Below, in pieces: positions 3,580-63,683 of a DNA stretch of 64,000 bases. The notes under the pieces are model-generated. The model did not search any database. It was not told where the DNA came from and worked only from the letters and a program-made list of their open reading frames with translations. The number at the start of each line of letters is the position of its first letter. Position 1 is the first letter of the stretch. The stretch is from positions 38,378,001 to 38,442,000 of the forward strand of contig NC_135879.1 of assembly GCF_964194155.1 (NCBI RefSeq). Reading direction: 5' to 3'. Both the position numbers and the translations under genes were made by a program. The DNA comes from Cetorhinus maximus. Its lineage: Eukaryota.

Positions 3580-4677
3580 GGGCGGAATTTTCCGATCCCG
3601 CTGGCGCCGGGCGTGATGGGCAGCATGCACGGAAAATATGTCGCGACCTGCTTCACGACGGCGTGAAGGCAGGTTGTGATCATCCGCTCAGCGCACCAAT
3701 GGTGGGCCGCATTTCCCACCATCGATTGTCAGGGAGCTAATTGTAATACACCAGCATATAATTAAAAGGCCATCCCGCCAGGCTCTTTGAACCCCACTGT
3801 ATCATCCATCCACGTCAGCGGGAAAGCACGTCGATGTGTTTCCCAACAGCACACAGGTGACATGCACTTGGCAGCCTTCACTTCAGGGGAACTGAGGTGA
3901 ATGAGCAGTTACGTTCTCCACAACTTGCCTGTTGTTTACAAGCCCCGGGGCACCGGTGGGGGGGCGGTAGCAACTGATGTCTGGCCACTGAGGCGACTGC
4001 TGGGGGTGGGGGGGTGTCCAGGGGCAAGTGCTGGCCAGCCTCGGAGGCGAATGTTGTCAGTGGCGGGGGGGGGGGGGGGGGGGGTGTGGTCAAGTGCTGC
4101 CCTGGCGCTGCATCCTGCACACAAGGGAATCGAGGTGAGGGGCAGGGTAAGCAAGGGAAATGAAATGGCCACGCATTAGGGACACCTGTAAAACCTGACC
4201 ATGCTTCTGCAACTGAGACAGATCAGGCACAGCCACAGTGATATGATTGGGTCGGGCTCCTAGCCTGCCATGCAAGCAACGCAGAGGCACCAAAGGACCA
4301 CCAAGCACTCCATACCTTACCCCCACTACCCCCAACTCGGCACAGGCTTCAAGTCTGCCACTACTTTAATGAACCACAGAGCAGTTGGACTGCACACGTT
4401 GTACAATCTCCTCCCCAACGTTGGCCATGTAACAGTCACTGCTGGAGGTGCTCACAGCCCCTTGCAATCTCGGCATCCCAGTTTGGACCAGTGCCCTCCG
4501 TGTCGCAGGTTGACAGGGCAGCCATGCAGCGCACTCATCTCCGGCCATTAGAGGGGTGACCAGCACTCTGGGAAGCATTAAGGGGCAGCCACACAGGGCC
4601 AAGAAGGGTGCTAAGTACAGCCATGGTAACCACGTCTCTCTCTGTCTTTCATGCTGCAGGAGGACCACGTCAGGATC

Positions 4678-5491
4678 ATGGATCCTGGTGACCTAGCTGT
4701 ATGCCTGATGGCCTACAGAGACCGTAATAGACTGAGGAGAGAGTGACTGAGGCTCCTGGCTGCGCAAAGGCAGGAGCAGCAGCTTCATGAAGAAGGGGCA
4801 GCAGGGGCTCCTGCACATGCTGCTCAGAAACGACAGTGAGCTGTGGCTGCTCGGCGCCTAACGACACCCAGGGTCTATAGACGCCGCCTGCCATTCCTGC
4901 AGATGACTGCAAACCAGTGTCGCCGATGACTGCACATGCCTAGGGACCTCGTGGCTCACATCTGCCACTTATTGCAGGACTTGGCACCAAGGGGACATGG
5001 AGGGCATCCACTGCCAGTGGCTGTGAAAGTGACTGCGGCGCTAAATTTCTATGCCAGTGACTCCTTTCGGGGCTCCACAGGTGACCTCTGTGGGATTTCG
5101 CAAGCCGCTACCCACAAATGCATCCACGAGGTCACACATGCCATTTTCTCCATGGCACACAACTTCGTGCGTTTCGTCGAGGACCGGGACAACCAGGATG
5201 CAAAGGCCATTGGATTTGCCCTGATCTCGGGATTCCTACGGGTACAGGGTGCAATTGACTGCACTTGTGGAGTTCAGGTCTCCGGTCGCTACACTCAGTG
5301 GACTTCATCAACTACAAGGGCTTCCACTCACTGAATGTGCAGCTGGTGTGCGACCACCAGAAATTCATCCTGCAGGTGTGCGCACGGTTTCCAGGGACCG
5401 TGCATGACGCCTACATCCTGAGTCGCTCGCAGAGCCCTGCAGTCTTCAAGGGTCCACAGAGGCTGCAGGGTTGGCTCCTTGGGGACAAGGG
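4678..5491 (+). pseudogene. Harbinger (HARBI1-like) DDE transposase, frameshifted and truncated
   Basis: ALNFYASDSF..GDLCGISQ..GFLRVQGAIDCT / FINYKGFHSLNVQLVCD..ARFPGTVHDAYIL..GWLLGDKG. Splice acceptor tgctgcag at ~4659 upstream of the ATG. Confidence 0.92.
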
Positions 5492-6080
5492 ACTTCAGGG
5501 AGGGTGTCTTCAGATTCCTCTTCGGAGGTTTCTGCGGGGCTTGATTAGAGGCCCTGGGTCATGGGCTCTGTCGGCTGTTTGACAGATGTGCCTGCAAAAG
5601 CAAGGGAAGATAATTAGTACATGGCCTGTGAAGGAGGACACATCACTCACAGCATGGTTGCCTGATGGATGTTGCACTGCTGGATCCTCACTTGGTAGAA
5701 TAGCGCCGACCTCACCGTCAGCACAGGACCGGTCCCTGTCATCGCCGGCCAGCTGGATGGCTCTGTTTTCAAATTCTGTCAGAACTTTGATTTCTGGCAT
5801 CCCTCCACCTGTCTGCGATCTTTCCTTCCTGTTGTGTGCCAGTGTGTACTGCATGAATAGAGATGGGGAGAGTGTATCAGGACGCCTGCCGGGCCAGATG
5901 ATAAGTGTACCTGGCCGGTGTGGGTGGTGAGTATCCCCATGGATGGGATGAGGACAATGACGATGTGTGTGAAAGAGTGAATGGTGATGTCCCTTGCACT
6001 GGCAGTGAGTGAGGGCCCTGTGGATGTGTGATGGGTTTGTGAGTGTGTGAGTTGGGAGTGATGAAAAGAGTGACTTATAT
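5492..6080 (-). pseudogene. Harbinger Myb/SANT-like gene remnant (intron 1, exon 2, start of exon 3)
   Basis: LAHNRKERSQTGGGMPEIKVLTEFENRAIQLAG, homologous to exon 2 at 58854-59050. Confidence 0.75.
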
Positions 6081-21456: not shown

Positions 21457-24186
21457 GGGTGGAATTTTCCATGCCCATTGGCGGCAGACGTGTTTGGTGA
21501 GGTGAGCGGACAATATGGCAAGAAGGCCAAAAATCGGTTTCACGCAGTCATGAAACTGGTTTGCAATCAATCCCTCCGCCCATCAATGGTGGGCACGTTT
21601 TGGGAACTTCATTGTAATACATCTGCATATCATTATAAACCCAGCTTGCCAGAATCATCACTCCATGTCAAATTTACTACCCACGTCGGCTGGAAAACAT
21701 GCCGGTGCACAACATGTCTTGACAAGTGTGATGTGCAGAAGTCGGGAATTACGGTCAGGATCTTGCTCACATCACAAACATCCGAGGAACAGAAGATGCT
21801 GGAGCCCAACAGCAACGGGACCCTGGAGGAATGTTCATCGCATGCTTAGTGAATTCTCATGGACATGGCTCCGCCGCAAAGAAGCTCACGGAAGGTGGAA
21901 AGTCACCGTTGAGGGTCTGCTTTGGGAATACAGTGTCATGTGCCATGATCTACAACGGATGATCATCAAAGGGCTGGAGAGGAAGGTCCAGCTGTGAGTG
22001 GGAGGCGAAGATGTCGGAGGGGGGGTGGTGGGAGAGTGAGGTCTGTGTTCGATTGGGGGAGAAGGTATGTTGATGGGGAAGTGAGTTTGGGAGGGGGGAA
22101 CGAAGGTGTTGGGGGTGTTGAGGTTTGGTGGAGAGAAGCAAAGGTGTCGGGGGGTGATGTTTGGGGCAGGGAGTAGGGGGGAGGAGGGGGTAATGGGGGA
22201 GAGTACAGCAACTGGGAGGCAGGTGTAATGGGGGAGGAAGGAGAGGGCAAGGAGTCCAGAGAGGGAAAGGAGTAAGGATGGGGGAAGGAGTAAGGGTGGA
22301 GGAAGAAGTAAGGGTGGAGCAAGGAGTCGGGAAGGGGGAAGGAGTAAAGCCGGAAGAAGCAGTAAGGGGAGGGAGAATTAAGGGTGGGGTAAGGAGTAAG
22401 GCTGGAAGGGGGAAGGACTAAGGTGGAAGGAGTCCAGGGGTGGGGAGGAGTCCGGGGAGGGGAGGAGTCCGGGGGCGGGGGAAGGAGTTCCAAGTGGGGG
22501 AGGAGTTCCAAGGGGAGAAGGAGTTCCAAGGGTGGAAGGAGTCCTGAGCGGGGGTTATCCAGTTGAACGTGGAAAGGAAGGGTCTTTGGAGTCAATGATT
22601 GCCTTCTGGGGAGCAAACTGAGGCTGGGCATGGTAGGATGGAATGGGGAGAATGAAAGAGGGCAGAGTGAGGCGGTAGGGTGGGAGGGTGAGGGTGCAAT
22701 GGCATCGGTAGAAGGGACAGCAAGGGTGGTTGATGGGGACTCAGAGGCAAACACAGACCCTGGGAGTGGGAAGGAGGAGGTAAGGGAGGTTATTTGGATG
22801 GGGATGGGGGTTTCAGGAAGGAAGGGAACGTGCACTGTCACCTGGGCATCCCCAAAAGAAAAGGGTTGTGGCTGGTAGGTGACGGTGGGGAGGTGGAAGA
22901 TTATGCCAGGGCGTCGACAGTGATGGGGGAAAGAACATGGGTGACTGGGAGAGGGGAAAGGACAGGTGACCTGAAGCAAAATGTTAGACGCATCATGCTT
23001 GCAAATCCAAAAGTGAAACAAGACTCGTGGTAGACTAGAACAAGTGCTGCATGGGAGTGTGATCAGTGGGTGGGCAGAGATGCAGGTCAGCACGGATGGA
23101 CAACTGAAAGCAAAGCCCAGCAGGCAGCATTGAAAATGCTCAGGACATTAAGATGAGTGTGATGGGGGAAGGATCCACATGCGTGGGAGCATGCTTGCAC
23201 GAGGCTCTGGAAGGCCCTGCCAAACACACACTTTTCCCTCCAAAATCACTCGTGGGCTGGCTGCATGCAGCTGAGCTGCTGGTGAGGTGGGGTGATGCAG
23301 GGGGATGACTCGCGAATGTAAATGTAGCTGAAAGACACCATTACACATTATTCAGTGAAAGTGAATATACTTTCAGATTATAAAGTGACAAAATGCCTAA
23401 CGTGGGCCACTCCACCTCCGGTCTGGGACTTCTCCCTGCTACTTTGAGCTAGCTTCTCCTGTATGAAAACAGATAGAGGGAGTGTGAGCAGGACACATGG
23501 CACTGCTTGAAATGTTTGTGTAGTGAGTGGAGCCATGGACGCGATGAGGACAGGAGCTCGAGAGGATATAAGCCTGATGAAGATGTGAGAGTGTGCGCGA
23601 GAGTTAGTGGTGTTGTCCCTTGAGGTGTGAGATCCCTGTGGATGTGTGATGGGTTTGTGAGTGTCTAAGTTGCGAGTGATGAGAAGAGTGACTTACCCTT
23701 GCAGAACAGATGAGACTATTCATCCTCTTTCGACACTGGGTGGCTGTCTCCTTTTGCAGGGCATTAGTTCTGACCGCTGCAGCCACCGCCTTCCATGCTG
23801 GATTGGTGACCTTGCTTGCTGGTCTTTGCCCAGAGCGCGGGCGGCCCTCTATGGTGTCCAAAAGGCGCTTAAGGGTACGCGTCATTGAATCGAGGTACTG
23901 CAGTCTTCTTGCCTTTCGGGGCCATGTCTTCTATGCAGCAGTCCTGGGCTGGAAGCACTGACAAGTGTGCGCGCGGCTGCCCTTTAAAATGGCATGAGCT
24001 GATAGTGTGGCGGGCGAATGAGTGCCCCCCTCCTGCCACCCAAACGGTGTGTTTCCCGGGGAGGCATGATTAATGAAGCAGGATTGAGACAATACGGCTT
24101 GAAAAGCCATCATTGTAGCTGGCAGGTAAAATGCTCTTTTTCCTGCCCACTACCGTACTTAGTGCAAATCTGGGACAATTCAGCCA
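21457..24186 (-). mobile_element. Non-autonomous Harbinger D1: truncated Myb gene plus unexplained module, no transposase
   Basis: Ends gggtggaattttcc / gggacaattcagcc. Myb ATG at 23925 (-): MAPKGKKTA..LKRLLDTIEG..PAWKAVAAAV..TQCRKRMN. Donor at 23696, acceptor at 23459. Confidence 0.85.
22010..22560 (+). repeat. Purine/G-rich degenerate tandem repeat
   Basis: ~15-18 bp units such as ggaaggagtaagggt and ggaaggagttccaagg. Similar C-rich tract at 42420-42840. Confidence 0.85.
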
Positions 24187-25215
24187 GCCCTGCACCTAGC
24201 CCCCACTCAGCAAACAAATACCAACTGCCTGGGGTTCACCAAACACCCACTGCTCCCCAGTCCCTATCAGGGCCTGCTATTGGATGCAGGCAGTAATAAC
24301 TCATTAGTTCTCAGTGTCTAGAGTTATACACGTGGTCCACATGAGGCAACCAACACTTACTGAGTTTAAGAGCAGGTAGCTTCTATTGCGACTGGGTTAC
24401 TTCAAAAAGCAGCCCAAGAGGAGCTGAAATCCCAGTCTGAACAAAGTAGCCAGGAGTCCCAGACTGTTGTTCCTTAACTCACGCAAAGGAGTAGACAGGC
24501 CATCGGCTGAATTTGAACGGCACGCATCAGAGATCAGAAAGATTATGTCAATTAAATCTTATTTGCATTTTTGGAAAATCTCAAAACTTCAGAGGCCTAT
24601 TGTGGGATTGCAAGAGAGGTTTCATTTTACAGAGAAATTGTACATTACAAATGAAGAGAAAGCAATGGACAGAGTGCACACGAGAGAGCAGAGGAAGTAC
24701 GCAAGAGATAACCAGCTGAGGGAGCCAAGAGAGTGCATGAGAGCACAAGAGGTGACATGCAATAGAATCTGCCATTTGATAATTTGATCTCATTTGATAA
24801 TTACATCTCATACCATGCATACCACAGCTTGGAATTGCTATTTTATTGTATGTTAGTGACTGTTTTATATTTATGGCCCCTAGTTTTGGATTTTCCCACA
24901 GGTGGAAGAATAGGCCAAGATAATGTCAAAAGTATGTCATTCCCAACGTTGTAACCAGAACTGTGCACCACTTCCACTTTCTCTCTTTTTGCCTTTTTCC
25001 ACGTGATTATAATTACAATTCTAAGTGCCAGCAGCATGCATGCAAAACATGCAATTTAGCTCCAGGGGATACTTTTCATTGGTGAAACCTGCCATCAGCT
25101 GGCAATGCAGCATCTATGGGTGGCCAATTAAAGAGACTCCTGTTCAAACAGGGAGGCTGTGCATCACAACCCGCATGTTCCACCACTGGCTGAAAATAGC
25201 ATAATCTTCGCAGAA

Positions 25216-26915: not shown

Positions 26916-27649
26916 GCGCTAAGGTGGCATATTTGATTTTTCCATTTAGTTTTGCATTAATAAAAAATGCACAATATAATTTTTTTGTTTAATCATTCAT
27001 AGTTATTGAGAATTGTTGGGGCATGTCGTATTATCTGATGTAACAGTCATGGCCTGCCCCATGTTTCTCACAATATGATGGCTAGAGAGGAGATAGAGAA
27101 ACAGACATTATTCCTGAATGAGATGTGTTGTGTCTTCGTGCATTCTTTATTGAATGTTCATGTGAATTGTTACTCCTGCGATGATCATTCTGTGAAACAT
27201 GGCTTTAAATGCAGACGCAGAATGCTTCCCTATGTGTACACTCTGGAGGATATTGGTCCACTTAATCAGCTATAAATGAGACAGGTGTAGTTGCATTCAA
27301 AGCACTTGAACTATGGTGCTTGATCAGAATAATTGGGCAAGGCAAGCTGTTATGTGGATGTCCATGTACCCCTAAGATGTTCCTAGTTCCAGATCTCACT
27401 AGTGAGTGTGTGACAAAGCTCTGCTCTCCATTCTATTCTAGGTGGTAGAGGATGCAGATTTAGAGTTAACCCGACAGGGGAGGATGGCAGAGCTAGGTGT
27501 ACACCCCAGGAAGGCGATGGAAGTCAGGCAATGGAACAATGGTCATGCAGTTGCATTATTGTTGTACAAATCTTGTGCAGATCAGGTTGTCCCTAGCATC
27601 TCTTGCATGTCTCTCCACGGCCCTGAAATTCATGAAAGGCTCACTTGGA

Positions 27650-28858
27650 TTTACGTGCTCTCCCTCATGCTCTGACAAATCCTCCTTGTCTAAGGAGGGC
27701 TGATCTTCCTCACGCTCTTCCCCTTGCAACATCTGTCTGCTTTGCAGTGCTCAGTTGTGCAGTGCATAGTAGACCACTATTATTTGTGACACCCGCAGGG
27801 GTACGTATTGCAGGAGACCCTCCAGACTGGTGAAGGCAGCGGAAGCACATTTTAAGAAGACCAATGGTGTGCTCGATGATGTCTCTAGTGGACACATGAG
27901 CTTGATTATTAGCACTTCTCTGCCTCACTCTGGGGATGCCTCACAGTCACCATCAGCCATGTACACAGGGGGTAGCCCTTGTCACCAAGGGTTCATCCAT
28001 CAACTTAGACTGCGACTTCAAAAAACTCTGGGAGCCTTGAATTGCACCAGATACATGCTTTGTGACAGTTCCCTGGGAAACACAGGTCTACATTATTCTT
28101 CTCCTGTGGTCATATACCAGCTGTATGTTCATGGAGTGAAAGCCTTTATGATTTACAAATGCAGCTGGTTCTCTGGGAGCTTTTATGGCCACATGAGTGC
28201 AGTCAACTTACACTCAAGGAACCCAGTGATGACAGCGAATTCAGCTGACTTTGCAGCCTGGCTGTTGTCTTCAGTGGTGAAGTGAGTAAAATAATTGACA
28301 TGACTAAATAGGGCATCAGTCACCTCCCTTATGCACCTATGTGTGGCAGCATGTGAAATGCCACATATGTTGGCCGTCGCGTCTTGGAAGCCACAGCTGC
28401 ATAGAAAATGAGCACCACTTTAACCTTGAGGGTGTGGGGTTCCACTAAAGCTGAATTCACTGTCATCACTGGGTTCACTTTGTTTCCTCGAGTGCAAGCT
28501 GACTGCACTCATGTGGCCATAAAAACTCCCAGGGACCAGCCAGTTGCATTTGTATCAAGACATCTTGATGAACGTCTTGAATCCGACATATCTCAGTGAC
28601 CATTTCCCAGGGCATCCTTGGATGTCTCTGGCATAGCCTTTCTGACATCTGGTGATAGTTTGTTCTTGTCCTCTGAATGCGTTGACATGCCACTGCCTGT
28701 CTTGGCCGATGCCTTCCCTGGATGTCTGCATCCAGACCAGCCTGCCCCTCTGGTGCTGCCTGCCGTTGGCTTTGCAGCCTCTGTTGTTGGACAGCAAGAG
28801 CTTTTCTTTCTCTCCTCCTGCTCCCAAAGCTGCAGGAAACTTGGGTGAATGAGACCAT
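27650..28858 (-). pseudogene. Harbinger transposase pseudogene
   Basis: HVSTRDIIEHTIGLLKMCFRCLHQSGG; GDKGYP-like gtgacaagggctaccc on -; DCTHVAI. Confidence 0.85.
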
Positions 28859-30039
28859 GGTTATGGCAGTAATTGCATGATGTGAAGAGGGCAGACATAC
28901 ATGTGAGAGCATGCTCGTCCATTGTTCTCTTCCATTTAACTAATTATTAGGGAGTCCCTTTAATTGGCCAATTTGGTGCAACATAAACTCAATCCATGCA
29001 AAACGACCCTCGTCCCACTTCAATCTGCGATCCTTGCAACTAAATGTGCCTTTTCAGCGAGCCAAATGGTGCGTGTTACACTCGGAACACGATCCCATAC
29101 CTTCTACCCTCCCCCTGTCACCCTCACACTCACCCCCATCACCTTTGACCTACCCAACATAATCTTTCCTCTCCCCTCTGTTATCTTTGAATCTCCCCCA
29201 TTACCATTTCCCTGCATATGCCATTTCTCCCCTCTGTGCCAACACCCGTGACCATCCCAATGCCCAATCTGAACCTGAACCCTCCCAATATCCTCCTTAA
29301 TGTATTTTTCTCTCCCTTGACCCACCCCATGAGATCTTCCAATACCTGGCCCTGATTCCGGACCTGCCTCCATACCAAGAACAACTTCCCCCTTTGACTG
29401 TGACTGTTTCCTCCGCCACACAGCATCCTCAATTCGACATTCAGGATCCCACCATTGATAGCACCAACAATGGCCTTTAAACCCTTCCTCCATCTCTTGG
29501 TTTCTGCTTGACCTGCCCACCTTCATCCCCTTACAGGACCACGACACCCAGGATGATTGGGTCTTTCCTCGCACCTTCTTGACCTGAACATTATCCTCTG
29601 TCCATCCTCCCTTCCCTCCACTGCACCACCCAGCACCTAACCATCAACTATTCAACATCTACCACCTTGTGCCACAGAGTTGAACATGAAAACCTGCTTA
29701 CCTTAGTCGCAACTCCACAAAGCTGGCTGGTGCACGCCACCTTTAAACAGCTGTGAACTGGGTGCCACGAGATTCTTCTGCACCGCTGACTTTATCCCGG
29801 GGGTAGTACTTTATTGAAAATTGTTCCGTGTTAATGAGTATTCATGGCATGCAAATACATTACAAGTACAAAGCCATCTCAGGCCGGCATAATTTTCAAC
29901 ATGCGGTAAACATGCGCTGACTTTATCGCTACATCTTAACTCACCGTCGGGAATTTGAAATTTTGCATCCCGCCTAATTAAGTCAGCCCACATGCCACGT
30001 TTCCCTCTCTTGTGGGCTGCTTGAAATCTCTCCCATATT

Positions 30040-32099: not shown

Positions 32100-33213
32100 A
32101 TCCACTGCCAGGATCTTTGGGCAGAATTATGCCAGCAGCGGGGAGGCAGCGAGGGGGAGATGCCACATGTAAAAAACGAGAAGACAATTGTTAAAGAGGT
32201 AATTATGCTGCATTTGCATGCCTCTGATTGGAATTAAATATTACTTTCTGAATTAAACTCGTGGTGTGTGGGGGTCAGATCCCCGACCTTACAAAAGTTG
32301 TGGTGTCCAGGCAAGGCCTCAAACTCAGAGGCGAAGGTCAGCCATTGCGGAGCATCCTTCTATTGGATGGAATCTGCTGCCGAAAGAGGAGAGGAGGCCG
32401 GCAAACTCACAAAGCTGAGGGGCAGCTCAGAGGACCAGAAGCCAGAACTGCAAACCTTTGGGGAATGGCCAGGCCTGAGGACCACTACAGGATATTCCCT
32501 CCAAGAACAGCAGTCAGTAAAGACGGAGTGAACGAGACATGAGACTCATCCACCCAGCCCACCTGCACCCCGGAGTAGTGGGCAGTGGGAGGGTGGACCA
32601 GGCACCAGAGCCAGCAATGTCAGTGCAGCAGCAGCAAAAGGTGCAGGTGAATGAAGTGGTAGATGGCTAAGGTGGCAGGTGGGTGAGGTGGTGGGTGGAT
32701 AGGGTAGCAGGTATGTAGGGTGGTAGGTGGGTAGGATAGCATGTGGGTGAGGTGGTAAGTGGATCGGGAGTGGTCAGTTCAGGAGGGGTAGTCAGGTCAG
32801 GCTGGTAGGGGTCAGAGGGGTAGTCAGGTGGTCAGAGAGGGTAGTTGGGTCAGGATTGTAGGGGAGCTCAAGAGTTAGTCGGGGGGTTTGGGGCTTAGTT
32901 GGGGGTTGAGGGGGGAATTAAGGTGGGGGGGGTCTGTGTGATTGACTGGGAATTCAGTTCTGTAGTTAGCCAGGAGTTAGACTAGGATTTTTCTGTCTAA
33001 CATTTCCTGGGTAACTATTCAAGTAAGTCCAATGGAATCGTTCAAAGTCTCTGACTCTAGCCCAGAGAACGGACGAATTGCCCATCAATTGCAGTTAAAA
33101 CTAGCCAAGCAATTCCCATACAGGTCAGCACATCAGTTTTCTCTGGGGTCTTGCTGAATATCTTGAATCAAACGTCCAGTCTCAGACAATAAGAAAGCCG
33201 GAAGATCTGGGCC
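32100..33213. mobile_element. G-rich MITE family, second copy (relative of 10005-10807)
   Basis: gtagtcagg G-rich tract, then a segment homologous to 10551-10807, ending gaagatctgggcc. Left boundary uncertain. Confidence 0.55.
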
Positions 33214-33214
33214 T

Positions 33215-33445
33215 GAGGGGTTGTTTCTGCTGGCTGAGGAATCTGGAACGTGGGGCACAGTCACAGGATAAGGGGCTAATCATTTAGGACTGAGATGAGG
33301 AGAAATTTCTTCACTGAAAGGGCTGTGAATCTTTGGAATTTTTACCCCAGAGTGTTGTGGATGCTCTATCCAGTCTATTTAAGACTGAGATAGATCTTTC
33401 AGAGAATCAAGGGATATGGGGAGCGGACAGGAAAGTGGAGCTGAA
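33215..33445 (+). mobile_element. CR1 3' UTR fragment
   Basis: ttaggactgagatgaggagaaatttcttcac..gtgaatctttggaat..atcaagggatatggggag. Confidence 0.7.
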
Positions 33446-35170
33446 GCCCAGCTCTTTCCAATGCTCCACAGCGGCATGTGCGGGCTAGCCCAGACACTAC
33501 TACATTATGCAGTTTGCCAATGCCCTATTTAAGAGGGCTGGAGAGTTTGTGCTCCACCGCTGTACTCCCTCTTGATGCGCATTGGCACCTCCCTGCCTGC
33601 TGGAGATGGAAGGGCATTCGGAAGGGAGACCAGGCACCTTGTCCCCCTCTTGCCCAGCCACTGCTGCCAAGAACTCATCACCAGAGTGATGGCATGCAGG
33701 TCTGCGTGCATTTCCGACAGCCACTGAATGGTCTGCTGGATCTGGTTCTCCATGAGGTTCACCAGGCTCTCCATGGAGGAAGCCATGTGCTCAACACCTG
33801 AGACAAGGTTGCACTCATGACCTGGACGGACTCCTCCATCATCTCTCTATGGCTATGCATCGTCGGTGGCAGCGGTCCCTCAGAATTGAGAATGACGTCC
33901 GTCAGGCTTGGTGAGACTTCAGATGACTGAGGAGCCCAATTCTGGATCTACATGTTTTTCCACAGTGGGGGTACATTGTTGCGTAGGGGAGTGGAAATCT
34001 CAGCCCCGGGTTGGCTTCCTTCTCCTTTCTCTGCCGCACCTGTTCCGCCTCGCTGTCAAGTAGCTGAGCCTTGAAGTAGCTTACGCCTTGATGGACCAGG
34101 TGTTCTATGCTGAGCCATCAGCGGCATTCTCCTCCCAGTCAATGGTGTTAATGACTTCGTGCTTCAGGGCAACCTTGGACGTATTCTTATACCTTTTCCA
34201 ATGGTTGCCCTTTGAGCATTGGCCAACGGAGAGCTGTGAGAAGAGAACCTGTCATGGAGGTGGTTTTTGGGCACCCGGACGCAAATGCCTGTCCATCTGA
34301 GTTGGTTCCACAGAGCAAGGCTTCATTGCTGGTAGACACAGCTTCATGGATGATGTTGCGTTAGTCCAGCGGTTGTCCCATTTGATCCCCAGGTTTTGAT
34401 GCAAGCACCGCTGATGGAAGCTCTCAAGGATCACTCAAGGATCTCAAGGCTATGCGTAACCTCTGGCAGTAGAACTAGATGTTCCTGCAACTCCATTAAG
34501 TCCTGAGTGGCCAACACCAGAGGCCCGTCATCAGCATGGGCCTGGCCTCCAACAGTCCTCCAACTGTCAGGTCCCTTGGCTGTCTCATCCTCCATCATCT
34601 ACTCCTGCGTGTCTATGAGGTGCTCACCAGCTTGTGACCTCGAACCAATTCGTGAACACATACCCACTGAGGTGAATGTATCTGTACTGATGTAGCATGT
34701 CAGGGAAAGATATGGTGCTGCATCCTCTGATTTTGATGCCCTCCTCCTCAGAAGTGGACCAGAGGGCCACTGTTAAGGCAGCAGCCCATCCCTCCAGTAC
34801 ACAAAAACCTGCATTGGAGGACACAAACAATTAGGGCAAAGGCCTGGCAATCCCTCTTCACTTCCAAGCTTCCTATGAATTACCTTTCTGCCCAGAAGTG
34901 GATACCAAGCTCGAGACCTCCTCACTGTCTTCACTCTACAGTCCAATCTTGCCCGCCGCTATAGCCCAGCCTCCCTGCTTTCCAGCCAGGTGGAGAGCCT
35001 CCTTCTCAACAGATGTCAGGCTGCATACATCTGGCTCACCTCCATCCATCTTCACCCTTTCCCTGATGTTGTGGGCCCTTTCCTGCTGCAGGTGGAAGGG
35101 GAAAGTGAGTCTCCTCACAATTATCAACTGACCCTTAATCAGTTGGTATCCATCTGATACACAGTGGGGG
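33446..35170 (-). pseudogene. Harbinger Myb-like gene relic, interrupted by an RTE
   Basis: QERAHNIRERVKMDGGEPDVCSLT (exon 2 homolog); MASSMESLV..MHADLHAI (exon 3 homolog). Confidence 0.65.
34070..34440 (-). mobile_element. RTE-clade LINE C-terminal fragment
   Basis: LESFHQRCLHQNLGIKWDNRWTNA..QLRWTG. Confidence 0.7.
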
Positions 35171-35213: not shown

Positions 35214-37400
35214 AATCACAGAATCACACAGTGCAGAAGAGGCCCTTCGGCCCATCGAGTCTGCACCGACACGTGAGAAACACCTGACCTACCTACCTAA
35301 CCCCATTTACCAGCACTTGGCCCGTAGCCTTGAATGTTATGACGTGCCAAGTGCTCATCCAGATACTTTTTAAAGGATGTGAGGCAACCCGCCTCCACCA
35401 CCATGCCAGGCAGTGCATTCCAGACCGTCACCACCCTCTGGGTAAAAAAGCTTTTCCTCACATCCCCCTTAAACCTCCTATCCCTCACCTTGAACTTATG
35501 TCCCCTCGTGACTGACCCTTCAACTAAGGGGAACAGCTGTTCCCTATCCACCCTGTCCATGCCCCTCATAATCTTGTGCACCTCGATCAGGTCGCCCCTC
35601 AGTCTTCTCTGCTCCAATGAAAACAACCCAAGTCTATTCAACCTCTCTTCATAACTTAAATGTTTCATCCCAGGCAACATCCTGGTGAATCTCCTCTGCA
35701 CCCCCTCCAGTGTAATCACATCCTTCCTATAATGTGGCCTCCAGGACTGAACACAGTACTCCAGCTGTGGCCTCACCTAGGTTCTATACAACTCCAACAT
35801 GACCTCCCTACTTTTGTAATCTATGCCTCGATTGATAAAGGCAAGTATCCCATAAGCCTTTTTCACCACCCCACTAACATGCCCCTCCGCCTTCAGAGAT
35901 CTATGGACATACGTGCCAAGGTCCCTTTGTTCCTCAGAACTGCCTAGTGTCATGCCGTTCATTGAATACTTCCTTGTCAAATTACGCCTTCCAAAGTGTA
36001 TCACCTCACACTTTTCAGGTTTAAATTCCATCTGCCACTTAACTGCCCATTTGACCATCCCGTCTATATCTTCCTGTAGCCCAAGACACTCAATCTCACT
36101 ATTAACCACCCGGCCAATCTTTGTGTCGTACGCAAACTTACTAATCCTACTCCCCACATCGTCATCTATGTTGTTTATATAAATGACAAATATTAGGGGA
36201 CCCAGCACAGATCCCTGTGGTACGCCACTGGACACTGGCTTCCAGTCACTAAAGCATCCTTCTGTCATCACCCTCTGTCTCCTACAACTAATCCAATTTT
36301 GAATCCATCTTATCAAATTACCCTGTATCCCATGTGCATTTGCCTTCTTTATAAGTCTCCCATGTGGGACCTTGTCAAAAGCTTTACTGAAATCCATATA
36401 AACTACATTAACTGCACTACCCTCATCTACACACCTGGTCACCTCCTCAAAAAATTCAATCAAATTTGTTAGGCATGACCTCCCTCTGACCAGCTCTTAA
36501 GCCACATATTCATCTGCACTATTCTCCTATTTCTGAGCTCGCTAGCATGTGGCACATGGGAGTAATCCAGAGATTACAACCCAAAAGGTCTTGCTTTTTA
36601 GTCTACTGCCTAACTACCTGAATTCTTGATGCAAGACCTCATCCCTCTTTCTACCTATGTCATTAGTAGCAACATGTACCATGACCTCTGCCTTATCACC
36701 CTCCCCCTTCAGGATGCCCTGCAGCCGTTCAGTGACATCCCGGACCCTGGCACCAGAGAGGCAACATACCATCCAGGAGTCACGTTGACGGCCACAGTAC
36801 CGCCTATCTGTTCCCCTTACTATAGAATCCCCTATTACTATTTATCTTCCTCCCTTCCTCCCCTCCTGTACAGACAGGCTGCTTGTGGTGTCAGAAGCTT
36901 GGCTCTGTCTGCACTCCCTGGAGGAACCAGCGCCCTCATCAGCCTCCAAAATGGAATATCGATTTGTGAGCAGGACCCCAGGGGACTCCTGAACTACCTG
37001 CCTGTTTCTCTTGGACTGCTTTGTGGTCACCCATTCCCTTCCTTCCTCAAGTCCCTTCATCTGCGGTGTGACCACCCCTCTAAATGTGCTATCCACGATG
37101 CTCTCAGTGTCCCTAGCCGCCGTTCCAGCTCTGAAACCCGAGCTTCCAGGAGCTGCAGCTGGACACACTTCCTGCACACATGCTGGCCCCGGGCACTGGA
37201 AATGTTCCCAGCTTCCCACATGGAGCACAAGGAGCACACCACGGCTTTGAGCTCTCCTGCCATGACTTATCCCTTTAAATTAAACCTTTTAAATCAGTTA
37301 CTCTAGGGCTCTTCTTTCCCGATCTTCGTTACTATAGAATATACAAACTATAAACCACAAAACGACCTTAAACTATAAGCGAGTAGTACAACAGCAGGCA
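35214..37400 (-). mobile_element. Relatively young CR1 LINE with a large internal deletion (ORF1 joined to RT)
   Basis: ORF1 MAGELKAVVCSLCSMW..CRKCVQLQLLEARVSELE plus SGNH esterase motifs (GARVRDV, VHVATND). RT 35297-36490: YMDFSKAFDKVPH, GVPQGSVLGP, FAYDTK. Tandem tail gaatcaca at 35214. Confidence 0.92.
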
Positions 37401-38660: not shown

Positions 38661-40511
38661 CTACAGGAAAGAAAGGTGGAGATTTATTTATGTTCGTAAG
38701 AAGATTTAAATATGCGCATTCATGTGCACAATTGTATGGTTGATGTGCTGAAGGAGTCAAAGATCAACCATGATCTTGCTGAATGGTGCAGCAGCCTCAA
38801 GGGACCAACTGGCCTACTCCTGCTATTTCTTACATTCTTATTTAGGCTGAAGGTGTGGTTGATGGTTGAAGATGAGTGGGTGGTCATTCAAATCATTCAC
38901 CCTGCTCTACAGATCTGCCAGTGTGGTTGACTCTCAACTATCCTCTGGAATGACCTAACAAACCACTCAGTTCAAGGGCAATTCGGGATTGGCAACAAAT
39001 GCTGGCCCTGTCAGCGATGCACACATCTCATGAAAGAATAAAGAAACCTCACCATCACTAGTGTTACTGGTGCCAATTATTTCAAGAACTTCTTCCCCCA
39101 CTTGCATGAACTTTGGTGGTAATTATTGTTATGAGGACAGATTTGAAATATGAGTATATTTCCATCAGAGCAGAGAAGGCATCAGGAAATTTAATACAGG
39201 TTTGTTAAAATTATAAGGATTTTGCTAGATTGATGAGTGACAAGAGGTCATCAATTTAAAACGATTACTGAGAGTCGGGAGAAATGTCTCTACACAGGTT
39301 TAATGGCACCTGAAACATCTTGCCACAGGGGACAGTTGAATCGGAGATCATTGATGGAATTTGGATAAATATTTAATGCATTGGGAGATACAGAACATGG
39401 GGCAATGGGATTTGTTTTGGAATGCTCTTGCAAAGAGCCAGACACATTGGGCGGAATCCTCCCAGAATTGCACTTAGTGCGGTAGCGGGCATGAAAAATG
39501 ATGTTTTACCCACTGGCCGCAATGGTGGATTTTTGCACTGTATTGTCCCCTTCCTGGCGCGGCAAACCTCATTAATAATGCGTTCACGGGAAACATGTCA
39601 GATCGCTGGTGGATGGATTCAGATTTGCCGCCATGCCACGACCTCAGCGCTGCCTCGCTCCAGGCATCATGTTTAAAACGCACCAGAGCGCAGCCTACTT
39701 CATTTCTACAGACCAGGACTGCCCCAAGCGACAGATAGCTCTGAAAGCAAAGGTGACAGAAGCCCTCAAATTTAGTGACGTCTCTCTGGGGTGCCTGCTG
39801 GATGCAGTGGAAGGCCATCGCTAACTCCTCTACCCCCGCTGTGGCTGCAGGAGGTCCACCAGGGTCACTAATCTGGCCTGGGAGCTGGTGACAGCAGTGG
39901 CCAGTGCCAATGGAGCACAGAGGAGGTCAGCCATCCAGTGCAGGAAGAGGATGAATGCTCTCATCCGTTCCGCCAGGGTAAATCACTCTTCTCATTACTC
40001 TCAATTCACGCACTCACAAACCTATCACACATCCACAGGGATCTCACACCTCAAGGGACAACACTAACTCTCACACACACCCTCACATCTCCATCACGCT
40101 CATATTCTCTGGAGCTCGTGTCCTCATCCAGTCCATGGCTCCGCTCATCAGACAAACATTCCACGCAGTGGCATGCGTCCTGTTCACCTTCTCTCCATCC
40201 ATTTTCATGCAGGGGAAGCTGGCTCACAACAGGTGGGAGAGATGAGAGATTGCAGACTGGGGTGGAGGGGCCAACATTAGGCCCCTCACTCACTTTGAGG
40301 AGCATGCTATAATGCTGACTGGTGAGGATGTGGACCGTGCCTGCAGTGATGGTGAGGTCGATGGCAAACACCCACTCTCAATGCAACTGTGAGTGCTCTC
40401 TCTCTCCTGTTTTTGACTCTGCTGCCATGCACTAATTATCTCTACTTTGGTTCACAGGGAGATCTACCAAGGGACTGATGCCCTCAGCCAGACAGTCATT
40501 CAGTTCCACCA

Positions 40512-40707
40512 CAAAAACAGAAAATGCTGGAAAAACTCAGCAGGTCTAACAGCACCTGCGGAGAGAAAAACAGAGTTACCGTTTCGAGTCCATATGACTC
40601 TTCTTCAGAGCTGTTTTTCTCTCCACAGACACTGTTAGACTTGCTGAGTTTTTCCAGCATTTTCTGTTTCTGTTTCAGATTTCCAGCATCCACAGTATTT
40701 TGCTTTT
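40512..40707. mobile_element. Fold-back Penelope-derived mini-element inserted in the Harbinger Myb exon
   Basis: ~60-bp inverted arms 40513-40573 / 40611-40670. Degenerate TSD agtcattcagttccacc / agtccttcaactccatcc. Absent from the homologous site at ~59155. Confidence 0.85.
40574..40612 (-). ncRNA. Minimal hammerhead motif
   Basis: agct-CTGAAGA-A-GAGTC-ATATG-GACTC-GAAA-CG-GT-aact: canonical CUGANGA and GAAA, perfect 5-bp stem II, altered cleavage triplet. Confidence 0.65.
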
Positions 40708-43509
40708 AGTCCTTCAACTCCATCCAAGCCCTCATCTCCAGGGAAGAGGACACCTTCTCCAATGAAGAGCTGGAAATAAGCAGCCTGGAAGCCCTGTCAC
40801 AGCACTTACCCACATTCTCCACCAGCGCAGAGACACACACCTCAGTGGGACCTAGATCGAGAGCAGGCTCAGGTTCACACTCTGGTGGTCACTACATGGA
40901 CATGTGTCCACAGCAGGAGGAGGCAGGAGCAGGGGAGCCAAGCTCCCAGGCACTCGGATAGCTGAGGCCTAGGCGTCTGTGAGGTCCGAGTCAGATGACA
41001 AGCCTCTGGATTCGGACTTCTAACTCACCCTGGAGAGTCAGCAAAAGGTGGGGGAACATCACGCAGAGCTGTTGGAAGCACTCAACAGAGTGCCACGCAA
41101 GTCAGAGGAGTGCACCCGCCTACTCTCTGATGAAGTGGTGCCCACATGTGCACCCTGGTCCAGCAGAATGCGGAGATGCACACAGACCTGCACTCCATCG
41201 CAGTAGCCGTAGGTGAGCTCCTGCAGTGACAACGTGAGAGGGAAACGGGACACCTCGACATCCCTCCTGGTGCTCCTTCCCCTCAAGGAGTCAGGCCGAG
41301 GCCCTCGGGCACCCAAAGGGAGGAGGAGCAGCTGCTGGACACCCCTGGGTCATCCACTCAAGAATCTCAGAGGCTGTCCTCTCCCTTCAAGTCTCCTTTG
41401 CCTGTGGCCCCCTCAACCTCGTCGACTCACTGCAGAGGGAGCAGCTGGCCCACAGGAGGACAGCCAAAGCAAGCCGAGGCCCTCAAGGCCTTGGATCTTC
41501 AGAGGACGCACGCTGAAGTCATCAGAGGCAATGGGGCCAACCATTGCACAGGCTGTCTCCACCCCTGTTGAGGATGTCAGGGCAGCACTTAGAAGCAGTG
41601 GGTAGGCCTAGAAAAGTTAAGAAATTCCGATCACAAGTTGCACAGATGAACACATGTTGTCACTTCATGATCTGAAAATATATTCACTTTCATTGCATAA
41701 TGTATAATGTTGTCTTTCAGTTTCACGAGTCCTCCCCCTGCACCCCCCACCACCCCCACCAGCAGTTCAGCTGCATGCAGCCAGACCACTGTGAATTTGG
41801 AGGGAATAGTGTGTGTCATCTCACTGTCCTGAGCATTTTCAATGCTGCTTGCTGGGGTTCTCTTTCAGTTGTTCATCTGAGCCGACCTGCATCACTGCCC
41901 ACCAACTGATTGCAATCCCATGCAGCACCTGTTCCCGTCCAACACAAGGCTTCATCGACTTTCAATTTGCATAGCATGGTAGTTGTTAAGTTTTTGACTT
42001 GCTCCTCCATTCTTCCCCCTCCCCCAGTCACCCATGATCTTTCCCCCATCACAATCCAACCATCTGGCATCACCATGCACCTCCCCACTGTTACCCTACA
42101 GCCTGAACCCTTGTGATTCCACAATGTCCAGGTGAACGCGCACGTTCCCTACCATCCTGGAAATTCCACTCCCATTGACCTGCCCGACCTCTTCCTTCCC
42201 ACCACCAGGATCCATGTTTGCCTCCGTGTCCCCACCAACCATCTTTGTCACCCCTTCTACCGGTACCAATGTACCCTCACCTCTCCCCCCCCCATCCTAC
42301 AGGCTCCCTCTGCCGCCTCTCACACTCACCATTCCATCCTACCAGGCCCATCATGAGTTTGCTCCTCAGGAAGCAGTCATTGACTCCATTGACCCCTCCC
42401 TTGCGCATTCACTTGGACATTCTACCCCCCCTTACTCCTTCCTCCACCCTTACTCCTTCCTTCCTCCTGTATTCCCTTCTCCCCCCTGTACTCCCTCTCC
42501 CCTCCAAATTCCCTTGTCCTCCCGAACACCACCCCATTGCTGACACACATTCCTCCCCCTGTACATCCACCTCCCCACTTGCACCATTCCCCCCAGTTAC
42601 ACCCTCCTCCTCCCCACTTCCGACCTCACCCCCCCCACCCCCATGACACCTTCATCTCCCCCTCCCCTCCCAACCTCACCTTCCGTGCCACCTTTGCCCC
42701 GCCCCTCAACTTCACCCCCCTACCTCACGCCTCTGGCACTTTCACCTCCCCCACTTCCAACCTCAATCCTCCCCGGTACACCTTCCTCTCCCACTGACAC
42801 CGAGACCTTCCTCTCAGCGCCCACCTCCCCTCCCCACCGACTTCACCGATCATCCATACCAACCCATGGCAAAGTCCTTCAAGTTCCAAAGCAGATCCAA
42901 AGCGTCAAAGGAGACCAATGAAGGTGGTGCAAGCCCATGGCAAAGTCCTTGAAGTTCCGAAACCTCAGTGAAGTTGAAGCTGCTGCATGGAGACCTCCCA
43001 CCTTCCGAGAGCTGCTTCATGGTGGAGCCATGTGCATGAGGAGCCACCCAGCATGTGATGCATGTGTTCCTCCATGGTCTGGTAGCTGTAGGGCTCCAGC
43101 ATCTTCGTCTCCTTGGATGTCCGCGATCTGAGCAAGGCCCTAAAGATAATTCCCAACTTCTGCACGTCACACTTGTCCAGACGTGTTCTGGACCGGCGTG
43201 TTTTCCTGCCGGTATAATTGGCATTGGGGGACGATTCTGGCCGGCCATACTTTGTATTCGATTAGCGGGATGCAAATCGGGTTCATGCCAGCCTCCAGTG
43301 GGATTCGTGATCCGCCATGGTGGACTCCATCAGATGATCCCACTGTGATTTCACACCAGCGTGAAACTGATTTCTGCCGCTCCCACCAAATTTCCCCCAC
43401 CCACCATCATGCCCACCACTAACAAGAGCGGTAAATTCCAGCCATTGGGTGGAATTTTATGGTCCCTGTAAAGGGTAGGGGGTCGCTTCCTATGGAACTC
43501 TCCCTTGCT

Positions 43510-58115: not shown

Positions 58116-60740
58116 GGGAGGAATTGTCCCAGATTTGCACTGAATGCAGTAGTGGGCAAGAAAACCACCTTTTACCCGCCAGCCACAATGGTGGCTTCTC
58201 ACACTATATTGACCCACTCCCGCCACATTAATTATGCATCCCTGGGAAACACGCCGTTTCCATGGCGTGTAGGCTGTCATTCGCCCACCACGCCATCACC
58301 TTGCTGCTTCTTCACGCTAGGTGCCATATTTAAAGTGCAGCCACGTGCACACCTCTCAATGCTTCCAGCCCAAAACTGCTGCAAGGAAGACTTGGCCCCA
58401 AAAGGCAAGAAGACTGCAGCCCCCAGGTTTAATGACGCATCCCTCGAGCGCCTTTTGGATGCAGTGGAAGCCCACCATGATGTCCTCCACCCCGCTATGG
58501 CTGCAAGATAGGCAGCAACATCACGAATCCGGCTTGGGAGGGGGTGGCAGCAGTGGCTAGTGCCAATGCCTTAGAAAAGAGGAGAGCCACCCAGTGCCGA
58601 AAAATGATGAATGATCTCCTCCGTTCCACCAGGGTAAGTCACTCTTCTCATCACTCTCAACTCACACACTCACAAACCCATCATACATTCACAGGGATCG
58701 CACACCTCAAGGTACAACACCACTAAATCTCACATCAGGCTTACACCCTCTGGAGCTTGTGTCCTCATCCTGTCCATGGCTCCGCTCACCATACAAACAT
58801 TCCATGTAGTGCCATGAGTCATGCTCACATTCTCTCCATCTGTTTTAATGCAGGAGAAGCCTGCTCACATCAGAAGGAAGAGGTCCCAGACCGGGGTGGA
58901 GTGGCCCACATTATACCCCTCCCTTACTTTGAGGAGTACGCCATTGCGCTGACTGGTGAGGATGTGAACCGTGCCTGCGGCGACTGTGAGGTCAGCGGCG
59001 TACACCTATCTGAGGATTCAGCACCACATGATCCCTCTCTCGATGCAAATGTGAGTGCTCTGTCTCCTGCTTTTGACTGTGCTGACATGCACTAATTATC
59101 TCTACTTTGGTTCGCAGGAAGCTCTGCCAAGCGACTGGTGCCCTCAGCGAGCCAGTCCCTCAGCTCCATCCAGGTCTGCACCTCCAGCCAAGAGGAAACC
59201 TCCTCCATTGAAGAGCTGGAAATAAGCAGCCTGGAAGACCCGTCACAGCACTTACCTACACCCTCCACCAGCGCAGAGACATAAATCTCAATTGCACCTA
59301 AATCCAGAGCAGGCTCCGGTTCACACTTTGTTGGTCACTGCACGGACACATATCTGCAGCAGGAGGAGGCAAGTTCTACTGAGCTCCCGGCATTCGGAGG
59401 ACTGCTAGTGAAGAGGCATTTGTGAGGTCCAAGTCGGTTGATGAGCCTCTGGATTTGGCCTTCCAACTCATCGTGGAGAGTCAGCAGAATGCGGTGGAAC
59501 ATCACGCAGATCTCTTGGAAGCCCTCAACAGAGTGGCACACGAGTCAGAGGAGTGCGTCCGCCTGCTCTTGGATGAAGTGGTGCACATGCGTTTGGAGCT
59601 CTCCGTGGGGAGGATGGTGGATGCCATTGAGGCCCTGGTCCAGCGGAACGCAGAGATGCTGCAAACCTGCAATTCATCACGGGTGAGTTCCTGCAGTGGC
59701 AACGCAAGAGGGAAACAAGGCACCTCAACATCCCTCCAGGTGCTCCTTCCCCTCAAGGAGTCATCCCTTTCCTTCCCGAAAATCCCACCCCTATCCATAT
59801 TAATCTCCCTGACTTCCTCCTTCCCACCCCCAGGGTCCATGCCTGCCACCAAGTCCCCAACCACTGACAGAGGATGAGGTTGAGGGACTCACAGGCAAAG
59901 GGGACTCGGAGGGAGAGGACAGCTTCTGAGATTCCTGAGTGGATGACCCAGAGGTGTCCAGCAAGGGCTGAGCTGGTAGGTGATGATGGGAGGAGGTAAG
60001 TGATACTTGGGGGGGCGGTCATCAGTGATGGGTGAAACGAAATGGGTGACTGGGGGAGGGGAAAGGACAGGGGAGCACACAAAAAATGTTAGTCACACTA
60101 TGCTAGCTAAATCGAAAGTGAAACGAGAACCATGGTGGGCAAGAGGAGGTGCTGCATGGAAATGTGATCAATGGGTGGGTGGAGATACCAGGTCAGCTCA
60201 GATGAAAGCGAACCTCAGCAGGCAGCATTGAAATTGCAGGATATTGAAATATGTTGCGGGAAGGATCCACTTGTGTGGGAGAGTGCTTGCACGAGGCTCT
60301 GAAAGGCCCTCTCACACACACACTTCTCCTTCCAGAAACACTCATGCTGGCTACTTGCAACTGAACTGCTAGAATAATGTGTAATAGTGTCTTTCATCTT
60401 AGCTGACAGGCTTTGTGAGTCCACCCCCTGCATCCCCTTCCCAGCCCCCGCTAGCAGTTCAGCTGCACGCAGCCGGCACATGAGTGATTCTGGAGAGAGA
60501 AATGTGTGTGTGACAGGGCCCTTCAGAGCCTCGTGCAAGCCCTTATAATGATATGCAGATGTATTACAATGAGGCTTCCGACATCCGAAGGTGGAAAACA
60601 TGGCCCGCCATTGGTGGGCAGAGCGGACAATCGCAAACTGGTTTTACAACATTGTGAAACCAATTTTTGGCCTTCTTGACATATTGTCCACTCACACCAC
60701 CGAACACACCTGACGCCAGCGGGCACAGAAAATTCCACCC
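58116..60740 (+). mobile_element. Non-autonomous Harbinger D3: Myb gene plus rearranged module
   Basis: TIRs gggaggaattgtccc / gaaaattccaccc. APKGKKTAAPRFNDASLERLLDAVEA..RRATQCRKMMNDL. Donors GTAAGT 58633 and GTGAGT 59051; acceptors 58853 and 59117. Confidence 0.88.
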
Positions 60741-62499: not shown

Positions 62500-63683
62500 T
62501 TTGTGGCGTGTCATGATTACACTAGCTTGCGGTGGGTTCATACTTGTAATAAACTTGTATGTCATGAATACCCATTAACCTGAAATAGTTTTCAATAAAG
62601 TCCTACCGTCAGGATAAAATCAGCAGCGCACGAGAATCTCATGGCATCCGGTTCACAATTGTTTAAAGGTGGCATGCACCAGTCGACTTTGTGCAGTTGT
62701 GACTAATGTTAGCAGTTCTCTGTGTTGAATTCTGTGGTAGAAGGCGGTGGTAGTTGAAAGGCTGGTGCTCAGGTGCAGGGAGGTGCGGTGGACAGAGGAC
62801 CATGTGTTTGTCCTGTTAGGGTCGAGTGGGGGGGGATGGGAATGGGTGGGTCAAGGCAGGGATTGAAAGATGGATGAAGGACTTAAAGAGCAGGGTTACT
62901 GCTATCAAAGGTGGGTATAGAGGGTCGAATTGAGGATGCTGGGTGGTGGAGGAAACAATCACAGTCAAAGGGGGAAGTTGTACTCAGTATAGGGGCAGGT
63001 CTAGAGTCAGGATCAGGTATTGGAATGTCTCATGGGGTGGGACATGGGGGCGAGCAAAAGCCTGGAGGAGGATAACAGGGAGGGTTCAGGGTCAGAGTGG
63101 GTATTAGGATGATCACAGGTGTAGGCACAGAGGGGAGAGTTGGCATGTTCAGGGAAATGGTAATAGGTCCAGAGTAATGGGAGGAGGTTCAAGGATAAGA
63201 GAGGGGAGAGGAAAGGTTATGTTGGGTGGGTCAAAGGTGATGGGGGCAAGCGTGAGGGTGACAGGAGGGTAGAAGGTACAGGGGGTTTGGAATGAAACAC
63301 GCACCATAATTTAAATTATTTTCTGAATATAAGATCGATTGAAGTGAGAGGAAGGTTTTTTTGGGTGGAGTTAATGTTGCATACAACTGGCTGATTAAAG
63401 GGACTCCCTAATAATTAGTTAAATGGATGAGCATGCTCTCACATCTATGTCTGCCCTCTTCACACAGTGCAATTACTGCAATAACAATGGTCTCATTCAC
63501 CCAATTTTCCTGCAAGCTCAGGAGCAAGAGGAGAGCTCTTGCTGTCCAACAACAGAGGTCGCAAGTCCAATAGCAGGCAACATGAGTGTGGGAGGCTGCT
63601 CCAGATGCAGACATCCAGGGAAGGCATTGGCGAAGGCAGGCATTGGCATATAAACACACCAAGAGGACAAGAACAAACTACCT
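62500..63683 (+). mobile_element. Harbinger family E 5' fragment (G-rich probable intron plus transposase N-terminus)
   Basis: Reverse-complement homolog of ~28660-29900: MVSFTQFSCK at 63487 versus MVSFTQVSCS at 28858. Confidence 0.8.

Follow-up and report, generated by a model that had tools for sequence, protein, structure and literature searches.

How does a DNA transposon multiply without the enzyme that moves it, and what does it keep in the place of that enzyme? The question is raised by three insertions, D1, D2 and D3, in a stretch of 64,000 nucleotides of Cetorhinus maximus (assembly GCF_964194155.1, contig NC_135879.1, positions 38,378,001 to 38,442,000 of the forward strand), hereafter the window, with coordinates counted from its first letter. 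The genome around it, 3.99 Gb, is rich in Harbinger transposons. The three insertions belong to a Harbinger family, D, that lacks a transposase and combines a Myb gene with a further open reading frame (ORF3). We argue that ORF3 rather likely coded for a small accessory protein and that D was probably moved by the transposase of autonomous elements named A2. The parts of the three insertions are as follows.

39449..43443, minus strand: D2, a near full-length D element of subfamily R2, with terminal inverted repeats at both ends and target site duplications at 39446-39448 and 43444-43446
39735..41630, plus strand: decayed Myb/SANT gene of D2, three exons at about 39735-39977, 40213-40376 and 40458-41630
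40511..40707, no strand assigned: later palindromic insertion of 197 bp in Myb exon 3 of D2, resembling a MITE (miniature inverted-repeat transposable element)
41640..41975, minus strand: block 2b, the putative 3' end of what was once the transposase leader intron, with the junction to the Myb 3' end, placed by alignment with family C
41976..42402, plus strand: predicted ORF3 of D2, a broken copy, ATG at 41976, conserved region of 142 codons
42403..42850, minus strand: G-rich tandem tract of D2, period about 18
42850..43241, minus strand: block 1 of D2, non-coding, with shared indels and no codon periodicity
21457..24186, plus strand: D1, subfamily R1, with a 1.2-kb internal Myb deletion at about 23395
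22576..22996, minus strand: ORF3 of D1, frameshifted
58116..60740, minus strand: D3, subfamily R1, without block 1 and tract, with an inverted segment at about 59865-60372 that holds part of ORF3

An amplified family without transposase coding region

An earlier note, made from the letters of the window, had described three related Harbinger insertions with both termini and no DDE transposase motif. That D1, D2 and D3 are real and kin is borne out. So is the ordered module that D1 and D2 have in common where the transposase would be expected: self-BLAST aligns 21648-21907 with 43241-42989 at 76%, 22517-23156 with 42459-41816 at 75% and 23224-23395 with 41816-41653 at 81%, and the G-rich tandem tracts are located at 22081-22544 in D1 and 42426-42502 in D2. 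D3 is indeed rearranged, with an inverted piece, and the subterminal motif common to D1, D3 and a transposase-bearing neighbor, copy A, is present. The end of D2, first put at 43398, has to be moved to 43443, where the 3-bp target duplication is exact. A spliced Myb gene had been ascribed to all three insertions; D2 has one, decayed, its start codon mutated and its third exon split by the 197-bp palindrome, while that of D1 is incomplete, the 1.2-kb deletion having left little of exon 2 and nothing of exon 3. All three insertions are broken copies. Both junctions of D2 are spanned by contigs of a second organism, diverged by ~4% in the flanks, so that the insertion is older than the split. Rfam finds in D2 nothing but sub-threshold hairpin matches at the inserted palindrome. 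This palindrome belongs to a MITE-like repeat family which occurs in the window at 13083-13837 as well as at 40511-40707.

From 29 near full-length copies, D emerges as an element of ~3.9 kb in which the left end, block 1, the G-rich tract, block 2 and a junction are followed by Myb, a gene of three exons that lies on the other strand. Its termini are imperfect inverted repeats of ~14-16 bp, of the type of family A, and an A/T-rich 3-bp target duplication is exact in 15 of 40 pairs of ends, against 3 of 40 for the neighboring triplet; set against the TWA consensus, TAA or TTA accounts for just 2 of these 15 exact cases. Right ends define three types, R1 (49 copies, with D1 and D3), R2 (18 copies, with D2) and R3 (11 copies). 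Copies differ from the majority sequence by 7.2-7.7% at non-CpG sites, and their decay is neutral, with rare-allele ratios of nonsynonymous (N) to synonymous (S) rates of 0.99 and 1.04.

All loci used in this work are top-scoring matches, hence a non-random sample. Two transposase queries yielded 85,178 and 99,510 first-look candidates, figures that are not copy numbers, and the block 1 and block 2 queries 6,247 and 4,662. Five sets of D loci (185 in total) were drawn via block 1 (39), block 2 with the junction (28), Myb exon 3 (60), the right end of D2 (29) and its left end (29). Self loci and one duplicate locus were excluded before counting; A-type or chimeric loci were kept out of the analyses of variation (L051, L052, L057, L065 and L172, joined in later analyses by L221 and L226). 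Not one of the 185 loci has a transposase in the slot occupied by the module, many of the 58 end-selected loci stopping short of that slot, and full-length D copies with a transposase, which by the earlier note's own account would speak against its reading, are absent among them. The junction of module and Myb is contained in one alignment at 26/39, 28/28 and 34/60 loci of the first three sets; it is spanned in 3 and 10 loci of the end-selected sets, most of the others stopping short. Transposases lying near some D loci are parts of adjacent elements, and L172, a candidate for the autonomous parent of D, was rejected as a chimera of A-type and D sequence. A profile built from 96 transposase fragments detects the transposase of a family-C element of the window at E 5e-31; against the six frames of the module, D1 and D2, its best E is 2.2. 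Recurrence of the same junction from locus to locus sustains the view of an amplified transposase-less subfamily, as opposed to three chance deletions. D is an old, dead, amplified, non-autonomous Harbinger family with a Myb gene and without a transposase coding region. Having spread without an enzyme of its own, it likely borrowed transposase in trans, as had been supposed.

The contents of the transposase slot

The module had been seen as cargo of unknown function. It is not a decayed transposase, a candidate rejected after no match to the 96-fragment profile or to the N-terminal 100 residues; nor does it match the leaders of families A or B, and Pfam, run on 50 frames taken from the D1 and D2 modules, gives one weak match (E 0.0055). 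Its second block, which the earlier note had called unique, turns out to be homologous to the leader of the window's transposase-bearing family-C Harbinger at ~25040-30030, which its profile matches. Positions 1055-1480 of D align with the family-C leader (majority sequence of 30 loci) at 57% over 429 columns, 3 of them gaps (E 7e-18); the profile score is 33 bits, where 200 local shuffles reach 1.5 at most, and a weaker homology, block 2b, reaches the region of the family-C transposase start (score 42, shuffle maximum 21). To judge by these alignments, block 2 derives from the leader intron of a transposase, of which it represents the 3' part. As a native leader intron, which moreover appears to harbor a third gene, it makes the cargo reading fail for most of the module. 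The earlier note had counted an alignment of the module to the 5' intron or untranslated region of an autonomous Harbinger as a refutation of its own reading; this holds for block 2 only. For block 1 no source was found, nor a match in the A, B or C leaders. A frame of 147 codons, open in D1, made it a candidate coding exon, rejected on account of frameshifting indels of 2 bp and 28 bp common to the subfamilies and of missing codon periodicity (p=0.75).

The first hint that block 2 might code for a protein was the near absence of gaps in the D/C alignment. ORF3 lies on the strand of the Myb gene, antisense to the transposase and inside its leader intron. An ATG stands at the edge of the alignment and the frame that follows is open in both families. 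It has 144 codons in C; the 178 of D include ~36 that lie in the G-rich tract, ahead of the stop of the majority sequence. Identity between D and C by codon position is 0.58/0.66/0.45, and the proportion of synonymous differences (pS, 0.59) exceeds that of nonsynonymous ones (pN, 0.38; p=1e-4), an excess present both in the first 80 codons, which are repeat-like (p=0.003), and in the last 62 (p=0.02). One other frame has the same signal, and contains 6 and 4 stops. Inside D, diagnostic non-CpG changes of subfamilies are spread over the codon positions as 15:3:20, against 1120:1238:1228 for private changes (p=0.002), while the same test on the flanking non-coding blocks gives p=0.93 and 0.75. 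As many as 101 copies retain the ATG, as do all four subfamily majority sequences, with variation at neighboring sites. Taken together, this makes it very probable that ORF3 was translated.

ORF3 is not confined to D. Two homologs lie in the window:

29066..29477, plus strand: ORF3 homolog in the leader intron of the family-C element at ~25040-30030, whose transposase is on the minus strand
62906..63307, minus strand: ORF3 homolog in a second family-C copy, an element that begins at ~62391

In the transposase of the first of these elements, ~100 bp are locally duplicated in inverted orientation, at 28154-28554. Among 30 family-C loci, 29 carry ORF3 and 27 the transposase. All 20 further loci picked with the C-type ORF3 protein carry ORF3, and five of them (L360, L365, L371, L378 and L379) have a largely complete transposase downstream. 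Others lack it. Nine aligned loci (L364, L367-L369, L372-L374, L376 and L377) make up family F, an amplified 2.4-kb element with an intact ORF3 of 144 codons in the majority sequence, no Myb, and a short stub of ~100 codons for a transposase. Family G (L362 and L363), where the leader is joined directly to Myb, is a second amplified family with Myb and ORF3 and without transposase; its junction is spanned whole in 27 of 46 other matches, by table count. ORF3 identity between families is 47-77%, with ratios of nonsynonymous to synonymous rates (dN/dS) of 0.29-0.59 for family pairs; the frames of C and F end at the same codon, and in the ORF3 tree D, on a long branch, falls with G-type loci (support 97/99). 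The leaders of 20 A1, 20 A2 and 19 B loci yielded no ORF3.

The predicted protein has ~143 residues, ~20% of them proline, is rich in Thr, Leu and Val, and has no lysine in its conserved region. An earlier AlphaFold model, from a shallower alignment, had a mean local confidence (pLDDT) of 55 and no fold match; with 24 aligned sequences the model is all-beta, of 12 strands, with pLDDT 79 and a predicted template modeling score (pTM) of 0.51. For this second model, the best Z in a fold search is 3.8 among 48,161 chains, which does not by itself prove a new fold, and Foldseek finds no match in PDB or viral libraries. An Atlas search with ORF3 gives 0.76 at best and otherwise no usable match. Pfam assigns 20 ORF3 members to no family, be it SET or TET/JBP. 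Sequence searches return no homolog; one gave 7 weak matches, and the five inspected are short tandem repeats (unrelated heptad repeats).

These repeats invite the thought that there is no gene, and that an old 21-bp G-rich minisatellite, or a structural DNA or RNA element, has a period that mimics codons. The strand is indeed 54% G with 6 G-quadruplex motifs, the sole database matches are the heptad repeats just mentioned, and D slid against C by 21 nt retains an identity of 0.40-0.42, against ~0.30 at other offsets. In register, however, the identity is 0.57; the C-terminal 62 codons keep pS at 0.59 against pN at 0.38 (p=0.02); the ATG is kept in those 101 copies and the stop of C and F is at the same position; and pLDDT is 79 with the deeper alignment. 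We hold a mere repeat to be very improbable. The coding interpretation has nonetheless to bear a set of contrary observations. Within D, the N:S comparison falls short of significance (21:17 versus 2502:1084, p=0.074). An open frame of 142 codons arises in 6-11% of shuffles on the C-rich strand, and the opposite-strand frame is open too. In a 13-copy subfamily the majority sequence has a stop, at a CpG site. A 21-nt repeat lies beneath part of the frame.

Two further sites near ORF3 were noticed by inspection. About 100 nt upstream of its ATG there is a conserved 30-bp motif (D2 ~41860-41900), also found in C, F and G, which is possibly a promoter or splice element. The canonical poly(A) signal that family A possesses for its Myb gene is replaced in most D copies (79 counted; at about 41690 in D2) by a one-base variant; Myb transcripts of D might read through into ORF3.

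The Myb gene, the ends and the source of transposase

A Myb gene kept without a transposase suggests a helper, and this is how the earlier note read D: an element that spread by supplying Myb in trans, with a captured foreign module as cargo. D1 exon 1 matches PF13837 at E 8e-5, below the gathering score, and the majority frame, which has homology to family A's Myb, is in fact open over 465 codons in three exons. D Myb is identical at 59-60% to two G copies, against 54% to A2, exon 3 showing a synonymous excess toward these G copies (p=0.002-0.003), and block 1, whose source is missing, would fit a capture. But the autonomous families A, B and C have a Myb of their own, and block 2 is apparently native leader. 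Selection on the Myb exons among D copies, which the note had proposed to examine, was looked for: a consensus dN/dS of 0.20-0.25 for exons 2-3 pointed to purifying selection inside D, then failed on diagnostic sites, where subfamilies differ by 8 nonsynonymous and 2 synonymous changes (p=0.46-0.73), and was dropped because of majority-call noise at CpG sites. No selection on Myb is seen during the spread of D. A subfamily without the last 58 Myb codons was amplified nonetheless (14 of 60 loci), its ORF3 intact. With copies neutral as well, the helper role goes unsupported, and we regard it as quite unlikely.

The subfamily just mentioned lost 350 bp between two short direct repeats, and with them the Myb C-terminus and its stop (L127, L129, L132, L142, L149, L150, L152, L156, L158, L164, L167 and L177-L179). 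An in-frame fusion of Myb and ORF3 was considered for it and rejected, since the frames differ.

The ends tell another story. Copy A of the window represents the family to which they can be compared:

3580..6077, plus strand: copy A, a truncated member of the autonomous family A, with a DDE transposase fragment (PF13359, E 1.8e-10) and no ORF3

Family A, of ~5 kb with transposase and Myb, has the left 270 bp and the Myb gene in common with D at ~72-75%; no part of the D module was found in it, and family B is more distant. Within D, types R1, R2 and R3 differ by up to 20-40% in Myb exon 1 and the ends, while exons 2-3 are almost identical: over the 1.3 kb that comprise exons 2-3 and the two introns of Myb, R1 and R2 have 0 fixed differences, against ~6 per 100 bp in the module. 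This near identity indicates that D was reshuffled by recombination. D-R1 and the A-type subfamily A2 agree at 90-98% in the first 200 bp and, for the most part, at 93-98% in the last 600 bp; their interiors agree at ~72%. The right end of D3 has, among its 29 best matches, 21 with an A-type body, 5 with a D body and 3 that are short. Transposase is present in 18 of 20 fetched A2 loci, and ages are alike (7.2-7.7% for D, 7.6-8.2% for A2). According to a study of fish elements, Myb binds the element ends and recruits the transposase (PMC9179366). As D-R1 and A2 have their ends in common, A2 is the likely giver of transposase to R1. Among the autonomous elements A1 and A2 (L070-L089, L260-L279), identity is 90-100% over most of the Myb body and 70-90% at the ends and Myb exon 1, a pattern which suggests that autonomous elements swap ends too.

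Where, then, does D come from? No direct parent is seen: its leader is homologous to that of C (57%), its Myb body to that of A (72%) and its ends to those of A2 (90-98%). We propose that an ORF3-bearing autonomous ancestor lost its transposase coding region, probably once, leaving leader, ORF3 and Myb. The D lineage would then have diversified with ORF3 under selection, spreading on borrowed transposase, and recombination with other Harbingers would have swapped its ends and the DNA-binding exon of Myb, matching D to an active transposase. The differences between R1 and R2 do not end at the deletion junction but go on into the 3' end of Myb, and the nearest relatives of D also lack a transposase; for these reasons we place the divergence of ORF3 after the loss, with moderate confidence, and selection on ORF3 is somewhat likely to have persisted after that loss.

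The main rival keeps ORF3 as a real gene and makes D an ordinary deletion derivative, a passive carrier, selection having acted in autonomous parents that are now rare. It draws on the Myb body without R1/R2 differences next to a diverged module, for left arms might come from different parents, on diagnostic Myb changes that look neutral, and on a precedent: in Caenorhabditis inopinata many MADF-only copies have just one DDE locus to serve them (PMC13668399). Against it stand the absence of such a parent among the 185 loci, the R1/R2 differences on both sides of the junction, and the closest ORF3 and Myb relatives of D, which have no transposase either. On balance we find a passive D unlikely, though it is the most serious of the rivals. 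The proposal of a transposase-less lineage with a selected ORF3 has its own debits, to which the non-random sampling belongs. Among the loci examined no autonomous element has a D-type module, and there may be rare parents in which ORF3 diverged. ORF3 sits near the left end, so that deletions may have retained it passively. No autonomous partner was found for R2 ends, those of D2 itself, among the matches examined, where 27 of 29 right-end matches have a D body and 28 of 29 left-end matches run into block 1. And A2, the proposed partner, has ORF3 in 0 of 20 loci, which implies that ORF3 is dispensable for Harbinger transposition.

What would ORF3 do? We suggest, weakly and by analogy with VANC of the Vandal transposons, a factor favoring the spread of its carriers, for example by anti-silencing of its own family; this would explain its retention in three different transposase-less families. 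The picture as a whole is a little more plausible than that, and still tentative: a clade of vertebrate Harbingers would possess a third gene, antisense and nested in an intron, whose small all-beta product has a fold unmatched in PDB. Lineages without transposase (some with Myb and ORF3, some with ORF3 only) would have kept it for long under purifying selection while they swapped ends to follow active transposases.

Elsewhere in the window, a further decayed Harbinger-like remnant at 32638-34300 has a G-rich tandem tract and a stretch resembling Myb exon 3 (33529-33846), and fragments resembling the reverse transcriptase of a long interspersed nuclear element were spotted by eye at 35297-36496 on the minus strand.

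Known Harbingers and the place of ORF3

The earlier note knew of no description of a Harbinger subfamily reduced to Myb. In 2026 such elements were reported from C. inopinata: Harbinger-1M_cIno and Harbinger-2M_cIno are MADF-only PIF/Harbingers whose mobilization in trans was inferred (PMC13668399). Like them, D is amplified, has terminal repeats and a Myb/MADF gene, and has no DDE transposase. The article describes simple partitions of a two-gene parent, with 19 MADF-only copies in the first family, and in the part consulted names no third gene, whereas D carries ORF3 (PMC13668399). D is also far older, is dead, and has ends in common with an autonomous family whose interior differs by ~28%. 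The Myb-only state itself is already known; ORF3 would be the new part.

In fish, Harbingers have two ORFs, both of which persist in all elements studied (PMC9179366), and two-ORF elements are described in a second source too (PMC4482050); neither source reports a Harbinger from the shark genome that it examined. Families A and B of the window resemble the fish elements, with short terminal inverted repeats, 3-bp target duplications, a DDE transposase and a Myb/SANT gene. Unlike them, C, D, F, G and others have a third, intron-nested antisense ORF. Extra genes do occur in the Harbinger class: a SET domain gene in HarbingerS, and a TET/JBP gene with a third protein in the fungal PHISTA elements, while VANC of Vandal is an anti-silencing factor (PMC12730594). 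ORF3 resembles these as an accessory gene beyond the core pair, and differs in that they are mostly recognizable enzymes or chromatin factors, whereas ORF3 has no Pfam, sequence or fold match.

In the literature surveyed, with Repbase, Dfam, subscription papers and supplements outside its scope, no intron-nested antisense third ORF was found in vertebrate Harbingers. Casola et al. in 2007 reportedly described a third ORF in the PIF-like DPLT elements of Drosophila, and the coelacanth LatiHarb1 of Smith et al. in 2012 is said to have a 'conserved region of unknown function'. The parts consulted of two other articles make no mention of a third Harbinger ORF (PMC5741667; PMC9710019).

Harbingers are treated as two-gene elements, under development as tools for genome engineering and of interest as the origin of domesticated vertebrate genes. 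If several abundant families do have a conserved third gene, it would be a new component. Selection on a protein in a non-autonomous transposon is hard to explain, for a protein acting in trans should not favor its own copy; ORF3 would be a direct case for cis preference or family-specific anti-silencing. The swapping of ends, in turn, would illustrate how a parasite family stays matched to a changing transposase. If all this is true, ORF3 is a selfish accessory gene that outlived the enzyme it rode with.

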